Below are positions 25,379-28,156 of a stretch of 64,000 nucleotides of DNA, piece after piece. How positions within the stretch are numbered: position 1 is the first letter of the stretch; the number at the start of each line of letters is the position of its first letter. Origin of the DNA: Escherichia phage vB_EcoM_DalCa. Both the position numbers and the translations under genes were made by a program. The DNA lies in sequence record NC_054908.1, one strand, 5' to 3'. The notes under the pieces were generated by a model that worked only from the letters and a program-made list of their open reading frames with translations, ran no database searches and was not told the origin of the DNA.

Positions 25379-25711
25379 TTATTTTACTAATTTCCAATGC
25401 TTCATGTCAAGTTTGCCAACTTTTTTCATCTTCTCAATTAAGCGTTCGGCACGCTGGCGAGCTGTAACATAATACCATTCACCCAATTCATTTTGTTCAA
25501 TTTTTCCAACGATTACTGTATTCAATTCATAAATCCAACCAGTAAAGAAATTATGAACTTGAATTGTAAAGGTGAAATCTGTTCCCATACCTTCTGTTGT
25601 TTCTACTTCAACAATATCACCTTCAACTGCCATTAAGAACCACATAGTTTCATCATATTTACCATTGAAGCATTTAGTTTTAACTGCAGCGTTCAGATTA
25701 ATCGTTTTCAT
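25379..25711 (-). CDS. hypothetical protein
   Basis: 110-aa ORF preceded by an early-type promoter at about 25735..25775. Confidence 0.6.
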   Translation of the reverse strand: MKTINLNAAVKTKCFNGKYDETMWFLMAVEGDIVEVETTEGMGTDFTFTIQVHNFFTGWIYELNTVIVGKIEQNELGEWYYVTARQRAERLIEKMKKVGKLDMKHWKLVK

Positions 25712-25821
25712 TTTATTCTCCTTTGTTTGTGTAAGATAATACTATCACAAAGGAACCATACTGTAAACAACTTTGTGCAATCTTTGGAAAATAAAAAAGG
25801 ACTCCCGAAGGAGTCCTCAAC

Positions 25822-25998
25822 TTATGCTTTCTGCTTACCAAAACGAGAAGCATCATCTCGAAGAACCGCACGTGCTCGGCGCATGATCTTCTCAACAGTT
25901 TGATTGATACGAGAGTTCGACCCACGCTTGTAACCAGCGCGTTTAGAATCACCAACTTTCTTTTCAACTGCTTTCTTTGCTTTAGCTTGTTTTGCCAT
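25822..25998 (-). CDS. small basic Lys/Arg-rich protein (30.9 position)
   Basis: 58 aa from MAKQAKAKK...; start choice uncertain (alternative ATG at 26040). Confidence 0.55.
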   Translation of the reverse strand: MAKQAKAKKAVEKKVGDSKRAGYKRGSNSRINQTVEKIMRRARAVLRDDASRFGKQKA

Positions 25999-26241
25999 TA
26001 TAAATTCTCTTTTAAATGAAAATGCAGGACTTATTGGCATTGCCTGCGCAAGCCCTCAAGGGGAACATAGGTTTTGTATATTTACCGACAGGATAACCAT
26101 AAACCCGTCATCATTCACATTCAAGAGGTACACCGTAAAACTGCCGGGGTCTTAAAACTATAATGATTCGCAAATCATTAATCAGACAGTTCGACGGCTC
26201 CTCGATTTTAGCTCACACTAAGGCAGTGAATCTCCAATAAA

Positions 26242-26490
26242 TTACTTCAATGTTACCACAAAGTGACGAACTGCTTTTCGTGCAGCAGAAGCCAGAGGCT
26301 TAGCATATTTAAGTTCATCTTTTTCCTGAAGCTCAGCAGCTAATGCAGTTTGAGCAGGATTCAGATGTTTGAAATAACGCAGGATTTCAAGAGCTTCGGC
26401 TTCAACATCAATAGATGCGCCATAGTTTTCGTGACCATTATTCCATGCGTTTCGTTGCAGTTCAAGAGCGTGTTGTAATTGTTTAATCAT
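26242..26490 (-). CDS. rIII: rIII lysis-inhibition accessory protein
   Basis: 82-aa ORF recognised as T4 rIII. Confidence 0.9.
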   Translation of the reverse strand: MIKQLQHALELQRNAWNNGHENYGASIDVEAEALEILRYFKHLNPAQTALAAELQEKDELKYAKPLASAARKAVRHFVVTLK

Positions 26491-26637
26491 TTAAAAATTC
26501 TCGTTAGAGATTAAAACTCGGTAGTCACGTTCTTCTGAATTTCATCTTCTTTCGACAGATCTCTCAGTTGTAGACTACCACATAGAATTGTTCGGTTAAC
26601 TTATTATTCCGACACCCAATTCATATTATTATTTATA

Positions 26638-26973
26638 TCACTTATAAAGACACGGAATAGCTTTATAGTGACAAGTAACGAATTTTTGTTTAATTTCTTT
26701 TGGCTGCTTAAGACCCAGAGCTACAAAAGGATGCGGAACATTTCGAATTTGACCAACTGGAAGAGAAGTCAAATCACCAACTTCGCAGAAACCTTCAGGA
26801 ACATCAGGACCGACAGAGTGAACTACACACAGTTCAGGAACTTCACCTTGAACACGTTTACCGATAATAAGTCCTGATTCTGTAACTTCTTCATCACCGG
26901 CTTGTGCAGGTTCAGAAACTAAAATAACATATTCACCGACAGCACGAATTGGTAGCTGTTGTACTTCAGACAT
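26638..26973 (-). CDS. 31: gp31 co-chaperonin (GroES-like) for capsid folding
   Basis: 111-aa ORF recognised as T4 gp31. Confidence 0.93.
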
Positions 26974-27338: not shown

Positions 27339-27575
27339 TTATTTACCTATTACAGTTTTAATATGAGTTGTTCCACGTTCTTTAAGAGTGGAAAGTAATT
27401 TTTGGCATTTTTCTAAATCAGATTTCCAACTATGTGGTCTATCAATACAAACCCAGTTTGACTTATAATACTGCTTCCATTTAGAGAAAAAATACTTCTT
27501 ATACTCTACAGCAAATGAAATGTTCTCGTTGGAATAAGAACTAATTGCTGTGAGCTGTACCAAACGAAATTTCAT
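27339..27575 (-). CDS. hypothetical protein (31.2 position)
   Basis: 78-aa ORF, start overlaps the cd stop. Confidence 0.65.
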   Translation of the reverse strand: MKFRLVQLTAISSYSNENISFAVEYKKYFFSKWKQYYKSNWVCIDRPHSWKSDLEKCQKLLSTLKERGTTHIKTVIGK

Positions 27576-28156
27576 TATTCACCACAGAATTCGTTGATAT
27601 TTTCCCAGTTTAACTTATTTAAGTTTTTCTTAGGAACATTAAACACTTCAATACCTGCATTTCGCAGAATATCATCCCAGCCAGGTTTATTTTTATCGTA
27701 TGTTTCACAATAAACCAGCTTTTTAATTCCAGATTGAGCTATTGCTTTTGCACAATCTGGGCAAGGAGAAAGTGTTACATACATAGTAGCACCTTCAATT
27801 GAAGAACCGTTTCGTGCAGCAAACAAAATCGCATTTAGTTCAGCATGAATTTCATTTTTAGACGACCATTCAGAGTGCGCGCTACGATGTTCTTTCGCCA
27901 ATACAAAACGATCAGTTGAACCAAACGATACACATTCAGGCTTATGACCTTGAATGATAGTATGTTTAGGCTTATTCAGCAACCAACCTTGCTCAGCAGC
28001 ATAATCACAGCAGTTCACACCACCTGCAGGTGAACCATTATATCCAGTAGAAATAATACGTCCATTCTTTTCAATTACTGCTCCTACTTTCCAGGAGCAA
28101 CATTTTGATTCTTGTGATACTAAATATGCAATTTGAAGTACTGTACTCGCTTTCAT
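27575..28156 (-). CDS. cd: dCMP deaminase
   Basis: 193-aa ORF; HAELNAI and SPCPDCAKAI zinc-binding cytidine/dCMP deaminase motifs. Confidence 0.93.
   Translation of the reverse strand: MKASTVLQIAYLVSQESKCCSWKVGAVIEKNGRIISTGYNGSPAGGVNCCDYAAEQGWLLNKPKHTIIQGHKPECVSFGSTDRFVLAKEHRSAHSEWSSKNEIHAELNAILFAARNGSSIEGATMYVTLSPCPDCAKAIAQSGIKKLVYCETYDKNKPGWDDILRNAGIEVFNVPKKNLNKLNWENINEFCGE

Follow-up and report, generated by a model that had tools for sequence, protein, structure and literature searches.

Irregular intercistronic hairpins with internal loops are well known from the early mRNAs of T7 and T3, where a host enzyme acts on the RNase III sites, among them R0.3 and R1.1, whatever their context. 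The sequence of these sites is conserved from one related site to another, and a protective hairpin stays on the RNA after processing; in the T7 R-type sites about 20 bp of coaxial double-stranded RNA are interrupted by an internal loop. REP elements, of about 35 nt, are imperfect palindromes of intercistronic regions and 3'-UTRs that are transcribed with their operon and stabilise the upstream mRNA; they exist in hundreds of copies and are moved by RAYT transposases. RNAs C and D of T4 (species 1 and 2), together with GOLLD and ROOL, are structured, function-orphan RNAs co-transcribed with phage tRNAs. The PeSL cassettes of T4-type phages were reportedly described by Arbiol in 2010. They place an early promoter, TTTACW-N17-TAYWAT, behind a simple stem-loop and ahead of an SD and start codon (PMC4122927), and serve in hyperplastic regions as small non-coding modules through which shuffling takes place, among other ways by the excision and integration of minicircles (Comeau 2014, PMC4122927). 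The put element of HK022 brings about terminator read-through by binding the zinc-binding domain of the RNA polymerase beta' subunit. It consists of two stem-loops of about 70 nt in all, arranged in a V-shape with a triplex in stem I (PMC9378689); it is a short cis-acting RNA that needs no phage protein, acts on the host RNA polymerase, and depends both on its orientation and on a position upstream of terminators (PMC9378689).

The locus considered here is the spacer between rIII and gene 30.9 in a 64-kb window (the whole stretch of DNA analysed) of a Tequatrovirus, which by BLAST shares about 99% identity with T4 and the phages nearest to T4. Comparison across phages shows that positions 26119-26208 of the minus strand, which we term module B, behave as a non-coding element of about 90 nt under selection for RNA secondary structure. 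Like the T7 and T3 sites, module B is an irregular hairpin with an internal loop between the cistrons of a phage RNA; however, its loop is much larger and asymmetric (4 against 15-20 nt), the basal stem below the bulge has 4 bp, and the element occurs once per genome and crosses phage families. The basal stem P1 and the long helix above it together make 18-20 bp, in which an A/GUA bulge and a C.U mismatch occur; only 4 bp of this belong to the basal stem, and the upper loop is very large. Unlike put, which in lambdoid phages sits just downstream of PL/PR, module B forms a single long, interrupted hairpin with just one apical arm, has no sequence similarity to put and lies mid-operon. Its spacer resembles PeSL loci in being an indel hotspot, and in the phi92 copy the order is circularly permuted between 13-bp repeats, but the spacer has no such promoter and B is a covarying fold of 90 nt common to non-T4 phages. 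As with RNAs C and D, GOLLD and ROOL, B is found in tRNA arrays, although it is far smaller than GOLLD and ROOL. A relationship to T4 rnaC and rnaD was rejected because our covariance model of B (R1) finds no match in NC_000866 69000-74500, which holds both genes and eight tRNAs. In contrast to the REPs, B is single-copy, 90 nt long, strand-specific and absent from E. coli. Module B falls outside the Rfam families, tRNAs, intrinsic terminators, PeSL cassettes, put, REP/MITE elements and T4 rnaC/rnaD, and no account of it came out of full-text literature searches, whether these targeted its sequence or T4 non-coding RNAs.

All genes of the neighbourhood lie on the minus strand, as do the features of the window given below. 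The T4 annotation places gene 30.9 at 25822-25998 and rIII at 26242-26490, with its TAA stop codon at 26242-26244; gene 31 (26638-26973) and cd (27575-28156) are annotated further along. Because the T4 annotation sets the ends of 30.9 and rIII, the spacer is 25999-26241, or 243 bp, the longest in a neighbourhood where the others measure 41-147 bp. A sequence-only reading of this DNA had described some 200 bp without a convincing ORF: the length needs this correction, while the absence of an ORF stands, the ORF list holding nothing in the spacer beyond frames of 25-29 aa. In the core of module B stop codons break all six frames, or the frames are not conserved between phages, and the substitutions are of the pair-compensating kind; a conserved ORF with synonymous-type variation was not found. 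A conserved micro-ORF, AUGAUUUGCGAAUCAUUAUAG, was considered and rejected, its start codon and frame being lost in Kuravirus. The same reading had called the region locally GC-richer, which is true only mildly (0.399, the window as a whole having 0.360), and gene 30.9 exceeds it with 0.455. The T4 records we examined carry no annotation inside the spacer. ARAGORN called no tRNA in the window, and an Rfam scan of the spacer gave no tRNA match; a permissive cmscan of 25500-26800 (Rfam 15, E up to 10) gave no match inside 25999-26241, and Rfam scans of six related loci (E up to 1) gave only tRNAs and chance matches elsewhere. Spurious matches to Atu_C8 and Phe_leader arise from the intrinsic terminator at 25797-25818. 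With regard to 30.9, its mechanical ORF reaches an upstream ATG at 26040 (72 aa, 25822-26040), and the start that is annotated and conserved lies at the ATG of 25998, which gives 58 aa. In several automated annotations the gene bears the name '1,4-alpha-glucan branching enzyme, GH-13-type', an implausible one for a lysine-rich protein of 58 aa.

Scans of the minus strand of the spacer returned no sigma-70 promoter and no intrinsic terminator, and TTTACW-N17-TAYWAT had no match in 25999-26241 at up to two mismatches. The same scans recovered the known early promoter just downstream of 30.9 and the terminator after it, and true T4 early promoters elsewhere had 0-1 mismatches; the earlier suggestion of a promoter/terminator cluster finds no support in them. 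The strong intrinsic terminator (25797-25818) directly follows 30.9, and the T4-type early promoter, TTTACA-N17-TAGTAT (25739-25767), lies past this terminator and ahead of 30.8. An invariant UUUUACGG was considered as a T4 early -35 box and rejected, since it has no -10 at the right spacing, is unconserved elsewhere and was not matched in the scan.

The palindromes that first drew attention to the region are mostly real. The hairpin TAATGATT-CGCA-AATCATTA lies exactly at 26161-26180, CCCT-CA-AGGG is at 26053-26062 and GGCA-TT-GCC at 26036-26044; a further palindrome, given as TTGCGCAA, was misread and is in fact CTGCGCAA, with TGCGCA at 26045-26050. The left-hand group (26036-26062) belongs to the leader of 30.9 and not to module B, of which the palindrome at 26161-26180 is the apical hairpin P3. 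Taken alone such palindromes are weak evidence: the short ones are at chance level in this spacer, 1.7% of dinucleotide shuffles yield a perfect 8-bp hairpin, and the z-score for the minimum free energy of the whole spacer is only -1.32 for the minus and -0.6 for the plus strand. It is the comparative evidence, conservation together with covariation, that lifts the finding above chance.

In the window the covariance model matches module B at 26119-26208, which corresponds to about 130,662-130,751 of T4, with 114 bits (E 3e-28). At its base, the P1 strand GAGG (26200-26203) pairs with CCUC (26125-26128), and this helix covaries between GAGG/CCUC, GGGG/CCCC and AGGG/CCCU. An invariant bulged A at 26199 stands opposite an invariant GUA bulge at 26129-26131. 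Above the bulges the long helix of 14-16 bp pairs GCCGUCGAACUGUC (26185-26198) with GGCAGUUUUACGGU (26132-26145), has invariant G.U wobbles on each side of a conserved C.U mismatch, and shows double changes in 7 of its 15 pairs. P3 has 8 bp closed by a UNNG tetraloop, and four of the eight pairs show double changes. Between the two helices lies the asymmetric internal loop, the 3' side of which, UAUAGUUUUAAGACC (26146-26160), with CC at 26146-26147 coming next, faces a conserved UGAU at 26181-26184; both sides, 4 nt and 15-20 nt, are unpaired and highly conserved. The unpaired nucleotides of module B as a whole are nearly invariant.

This fold was first derived by eye from an alignment (A1) of 28 distinct versions of B, comprising BLAST-derived sequences and copies retrieved from IMG/VR and metagenomes with a degenerate pattern. 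Across the 28 versions, 98.2% of the 721 pair cells are paired, although many of the sequences are close relatives and the cell counts therefore overstate the number of independent events; 13 of the 27 pairs changed on both sides (70 cells). None of 500 shuffles reached the observed score. When the 3' partners were slid by 1-3 columns, pairing fell to 30-62%, and the covariation value of 0.337 for the fold compares with 0.03-0.13 (maximum 0.134) in these controls. RNAalifold predicts the same pairs independently of the by-eye fold, and single-sequence minimum free energy folds of the T4, W70, O18-011 and phiWec188 versions give it again (z -0.8 to -4.3). The folding and covariance checks that the sequence-only reading had proposed thus agree with one conserved fold, and its suggestion of a small RNA is borne out to the extent that a 90-nt structure is kept, with compensatory changes, on the transcribed strand. 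On the opposite strand 93 G.U cells become A.C and pairing drops to 85.3%; to judge from the alignment, the two invariant G.U pairs and the conserved C.U mismatch fit the transcribed strand only. The pattern that supplied part of A1 holds GAGCYRTCGAA and TTTTRYRGTGTACC constant, and with them part of the basal helix, which inflates the apparent invariance at those positions; the same residues are present in the BLAST-derived versions (W70, A5-4, LTH01, O18-011, 172-1, phiWec188, AlbertHofmann, IME341 and phi92), and the Y and R positions of the pattern were free to mispair. Two other IMG/VR patterns were set aside: AATCAGACA-N-TTCGACGGCTCC retrieved T4-likes only, and GAGCYRTCGAA-N{4,9}-TCTGATTA gave 5 chance matches in coding DNA. 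Model R1 finds a single copy of B in the 64-kb window, one per related locus, and no false match in 640 kb of unrelated control DNA, namely the DNA around 120 chance matches of TCTGATTA-N-TATRKTTTT, an AT-rich, loose contig pattern. We consider it very probable that module B is a functional structured RNA. The sequence-only reading had also allowed for a protein-binding site, and a putative protein-binding RNA site is compatible with the fold.

Two variants of the element can be told apart, B1 (the T4 type) and B2 (the AlbertHofmann/IME341 type), which are distributed as a mosaic within Mosigvirus; B2 is 88-91% identical to the phiWec188 copy. In B2 (loci L142, L143 and L014) a 9-nt insertion, in columns 43-70 of A1, allows an alternative hairpin, CGAUAU/GUAUCG, or CGGUAU/GUACCG in IME341, which overlaps the 3' strand of P3 and has one compensatory pair. 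B2 could therefore be a two-state element, but one of the four versions has an A.C mismatch, and we regard the evidence as too slender for a switch to be claimed.

Module B is present in five unrelated groups of virulent coliphages: the T4-likes (668 records), Kuravirus (about 28), Vequintavirinae, Phapecoctavirus and Justusliebigvirus. BLAST with the spacer finds a 97-98% identical copy inside the tRNA array of the phi92-like phages (Justusliebigvirus), and narrower queries find a core of about 95 nt at 77-86% identity in Vequintavirinae, Phapecoctavirus and Kuravirus. The Vequintavirinae copies (W70, A73, A5-4, LTH01) adjoin tRNAs and that of Phapecoctavirus phiWec188 lies between tRNA-Gln and tRNA-Pro, which makes three phage groups with B in tRNA arrays; the Kuravirus copies lie between a phrog_8771 ORF and the terminase or portal genes. 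In all five contexts B is co-oriented with the flanking genes or tRNAs, and no protein family is common to its neighbours across the contexts. Only a few members of Vequintavirinae and Stephanstirmvirinae carry it. B had no BLAST match in 5,426 complete E. coli genomes or in the PLSDB plasmids, and on this basis we reject an origin from the host as well as a reservoir in prophages or plasmids. Two records with coliphage-type copies, MG065689.1 (L016; 'Campylobacter phage A110a', unverified) and OR584014.1 ('Pseudomonas phage PsgM04F'), are classified as, or identical to, Stephanstirmvirinae coliphages, and their host labels are likely wrong or derived from contaminants.

Lack of conservation in related phages had been named beforehand as part of what would refute the sequence-only reading, and it clearly does not apply. 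Between T4 and RB69 the core of B is 100% identical, against 85.7% for rIII and 90.6% for 30.9, and in RB69-type phages it begins just 3-6 nt past the rIII stop. Some relatives have nonetheless lost it. The KMB39-type Tequatrovirus has no B, the copy of CF-SP2 (Gelderlandvirus) is internally deleted and decayed, and that of G50 (Tequatrovirus) is internally deleted with the basal hairpin kept; in KBNP1711 (Nieuwekanaalvirus, a relative of Kuravirus) B is likewise cut down to the basal hairpin. Judging from its absence or deletion in KMB39-type phages, G50 and CF-SP2, module B is dispensable. In the two shortened forms, which we call mini-B (G50, extracted locus L174 515-560; KBNP1711, extracted locus L179 677-722; both minus strand), the apical two-thirds are gone and the basal helix, with its A bulge, GUA bulge, C.U mismatch and G.U pairs, is capped by a loop of 3-5 nt. 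The independent origin of these alleles suggests that the basal helix is a functional unit.

The copy in phi92 and ESCO9 gives some insight into how the element travels. It is a T4-derived, circularly permuted piece of 329 bp that holds the 3' end of rIII, the start of 30.9 and the whole spacer (L005 2798-3142 in phi92 and L002 2501-2845 in ESCO9), with window positions 26229-26326 joined to 25990-26241 through a TTTT(T/G)CC microhomology. On either side of the piece stands a 13-bp direct repeat, AATCTCCAATAAA, and the 5' end of tRNA-Gln is one of its copies. In phi92 it is annotated 'putative rIII' (gp113). This permuted layout is what would be expected of minicircle integration as proposed for the PeSL cassettes (PMC4122927), and from its sequence the segment looks like such an integration between unrelated phage families. 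Together with the distribution described above, it indicates that B has moved between phage groups by recombination.

Module B lies on the transcribed strand and has no promoter of its own, so it would be made within transcripts that read through rIII towards 30.9; rIII is transcribed at all stages of infection, from early, middle and late promoters (PMC9409239). The element is kept in transcription units as different as tRNA arrays, a lysis-inhibition/early-gene spacer and a spacer ahead of the terminase gene; its unpaired positions hardly vary, and it is not accompanied by any phage protein. Together these observations point to a signal recognised by an E. coli factor. Recognition by a host factor, independent of context, is in our view somewhat better than an even bet. 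We propose that such a factor of the shared host would bind B sequence-specifically, and that B would mark polycistronic or tRNA-array precursor RNAs as a point of endonucleolytic processing and protection: cleavage would fall in the exposed U-rich loop and tail, the pieces on either side would be shielded by the irregular helix, and a stable structured fragment would be left. RNase E prefers RN|WUU, and the UAUAG/UUUU of the B loop fits this preference as a predicted site. The specific mechanism of processing and stabilisation, drawn from context, is tentative, and a processing and protection signal as the best overall explanation deserves slightly more credence, though still short of even. 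A plain nuclease barrier would need neither near-invariant loops nor 100% identity between T4 and RB69, and the hairpin just upstream of 30.9, unlike B, keeps its structure while its sequence drifts.

The losses in KMB39-type phages, G50 and CF-SP2 would look more natural for an accessory or anti-host function, in which tRNA-processing enzymes might excise B from its carrier in tRNA arrays as a stable small RNA that titrates a host protein in trans, for instance one of defence or RNA metabolism, and phages would gain, lose and exchange it as they do an anti-defence gene. Three independent insertions into tRNA arrays, the patchy distribution (with loss in some T4-likes and presence in few Vequintavirinae and Stephanstirmvirinae), recent horizontal transfers between phages that are unrelated (98% and about 90% identity), and the kind of wobble pairs and near-invariant unpaired residues that a specific binding surface typically has all fit this idea, as do the single copy, the lack of a partner protein nearby and the absence of B from host genomes. 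However, non-coding space in these phages is concentrated in tRNA arrays, where insertion may reflect tolerance only, and in the T4-likes and Kuravirus B abuts a stop codon like a 3'-UTR element; we regard this alternative as rather unlikely. It is more unlikely still that B acts in cis as an antiterminator of the HK022 put or rrn boxA type, the nascent RNA modifying RNA polymerase so that it reads through terminators and resists Rho. The carrier phages all use the host RNA polymerase, the orientation of B is fixed, and put shows that an RNA alone can suffice (PMC9378689). In Kuravirus and KBNP1711, B lies 25-50 nt upstream of a strong intrinsic terminator preceding the terminase gene, in phiWec188 it is followed by a hairpin and U6, in T4 terminator-like hairpins and the strong terminator after 30.9 come downstream of it, and in Vequintavirinae it heads an untranslated tRNA array. 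Its architecture is nevertheless unlike that of put, without sequence similarity or a boxA, and in phi92 and phiWec188 it sits mid-array.

Mobility might also be a property of the DNA, if B were a selfish palindrome of the MITE or REP kind or a recombination scar whose structure matters, if at all, as a DNA hairpin. The independent distribution of the spacer modules, the insertion hotspot and the minicircle-type illegitimate recombination of the phi92 copy are in keeping with this, but the movement is accounted for by ordinary recombination of flanking DNA and not by the element itself; B has one copy per genome, no terminal inverted repeats or target duplications at its insertion boundaries, an orientation that always follows transcription and a conservation that exceeds that of the flanking genes, and its invariant G.U pairs would be A.C on the other strand. 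We consider a selfish palindrome very improbable. A new small self-cleaving ribozyme or ligand aptamer, in which covarying helices would hold conserved junction nucleotides, strikes us as very improbable indeed. Size, covarying stems round conserved unpaired residues, scattered occurrence in intergenic regions and tRNA arrays of phages, and mobility would suit one, representatives of the twister, hatchet, pistol and hammerhead classes in phages behave in a similarly scattered and mobile way, and Rfam scans matched no known class. Yet the class-specific Rfam models were equally silent, mini versions with the basal hairpin alone persist in two lineages, and there is no multi-helix junction, pseudoknot or downstream expression platform. 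That the spacer is simply a promoter/terminator cluster controlling 30.9 is barely credible: a GCAGG/CCUGC hairpin followed by AUUUUCAUUU does stand upstream of 30.9, and other genera have a hairpin there, but scans that are positive for the known sites nearby are negative in the spacer, the core of B has no U-tract, and its covariation goes far beyond the needs of a terminator.

As a signal for processing and protection or otherwise, module B is a candidate for a new RNA family among the conserved structured RNA elements of phages, with no match to any curated family. A fold that is more conserved than its flanking genes and common to rV5-like, phi92-like and phiEco32-like phages points to a context-independent function at the RNA level, one that is probably tied to the common host. 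T4 is the best-studied virulent phage, yet in those of its records that we examined the spacer is unannotated. Whether virulent coliphages trade in B, much as they would in an accessory gene, as a new class of mobile functional RNA, one that either self-cleaves or is released from tRNA-array or mRNA precursors as a small stable RNA to act in trans as a decoy or inhibitor of a host defence or RNA-metabolism protein, seems to us doubtful, if a little less so than its excision to titrate a host protein. Were it true, T4 would gain a functional non-coding RNA that had gone unrecognised. The rIII-30.9 spacer of the Tevenvirinae might in turn be a dedicated landing pad for such RNAs, because an unrelated and equally conserved 135-nt module, X, holds the same spot in T4-likes of Klebsiella, Citrobacter, Enterobacter and Aeromonas. 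Module B is a small and testable object (90 nt, with natural null and 'mini' alleles available) that bears on the processing and protection of phage transcripts, or on RNAs used against host systems, and it reveals fine-scale exchange of modules, including minicircle-like transfer, between phage families that otherwise share no DNA.

By the same comparisons the spacer as a whole is a mosaic of small mobile modules, which in RNA sense follow the rIII stop in the order L, B, tail, C, CCCCUUGAGGG, the GCAGG/CCUGC hairpin with a U-rich run, and the SD and ATG of 30.9. Module L, UUUAUUGGAGAUUCACUGCCUUAGUGUGAGCUA (26209-26241), is an optional leader: T4, T2, phi92 and phiWec188 have it, RB69, AlbertHofmann and IME341 do not. 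Its first 13 nt are identical to the 5' flank and the start of the acceptor stem of phi92 tRNA-Gln, to which it also shows D-arm-like similarity, and these 13 nt may have served as the crossover site for transfer into phi92-like phages. An intrinsic terminator is a GC-rich stem with a U-tract directly behind it; what follows B is the conserved single-stranded tail, UUGAAUGUGAAU (26113-26124), or UUGUAAGNGAA in other phage groups, which reads UUGAAUGU. The tail is an insertion hotspot, empty in T4 but filled by a 45-nt 'Y' in T2 and RB69 and by a 155-nt 'X' in Pinarejo and AlbertHofmann.

Module C, AUGAUGACGGGUUUAUGGUUAUCCUGUCGGUAAAUAUACAAAACC (26070-26114), contains a small hairpin (26104-26109/26087-26092) of GACGGG/CCUGUC with the loop UUUAUGGUUAU, followed by GUAAAUAU. 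It is kept in all Tevenvirinae genera sampled, with limited covariation (2 of 6 pairs). In the Vequintavirinae it lies just 3' of B in A5-4 and LTH01 (L146 and L147) but not in W70, which marks it as a separately mobile piece of about 55 nt. As a sigma-70 promoter it was rejected, the spacing of TTGACG-TAAATA being 22 nt and the putative -10 variable. The leader of 30.9, read by eye at 26024-26063, holds the short hairpin CCCCUUGAGGG (26053-26063) and the hairpin GCAGG...CCUGC (26043-26047/26024-26028), which is followed by AUUUUCAUUU (26014-26023). A hairpin occupies the latter position in every genus with differing sequence (GAACUGG/CCAGUUC in CF-SP2); by eye it is probably a weak terminator or a 5' stabiliser, though the terminator scan does not call it. 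The ribosome-binding region AAAAGAGAAUUUAUA with the ATG (25996-25998) completes the spacer side of 30.9 (25996-26013).

Module X is a non-coding insert of 135-155 nt that lies directly after B or alone in the rIII-30.9 spacer. It is found in 408 phage records, including T4-likes of Klebsiella, Enterobacter, Citrobacter, Raoultella and Aeromonas, at 85-95% identity; copies outside the window are at L148 612-775 (minus strand), L175 (about 600-735), L142, L176, L177 and L178. It gave no match to Rfam. RNAalifold folds six versions into a multi-helix structure in which 15 of 46 pairs are compensated, and X and B have ACGGUGU(A/G)C in common. On these grounds module X looks like a second candidate structured RNA at the same locus. 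Directly 3' of B in the Vequintavirinae there is, besides, an 85-nt tRNA-like sequence (L004 1918-2003 and L147 1349-1427, both minus strand). It is not called by ARAGORN and reaches just 35.8 bits with the Rfam tRNA model; its acceptor stem is perfect over 7 bp and its T-arm canonical, but the D/anticodon region is aberrant.
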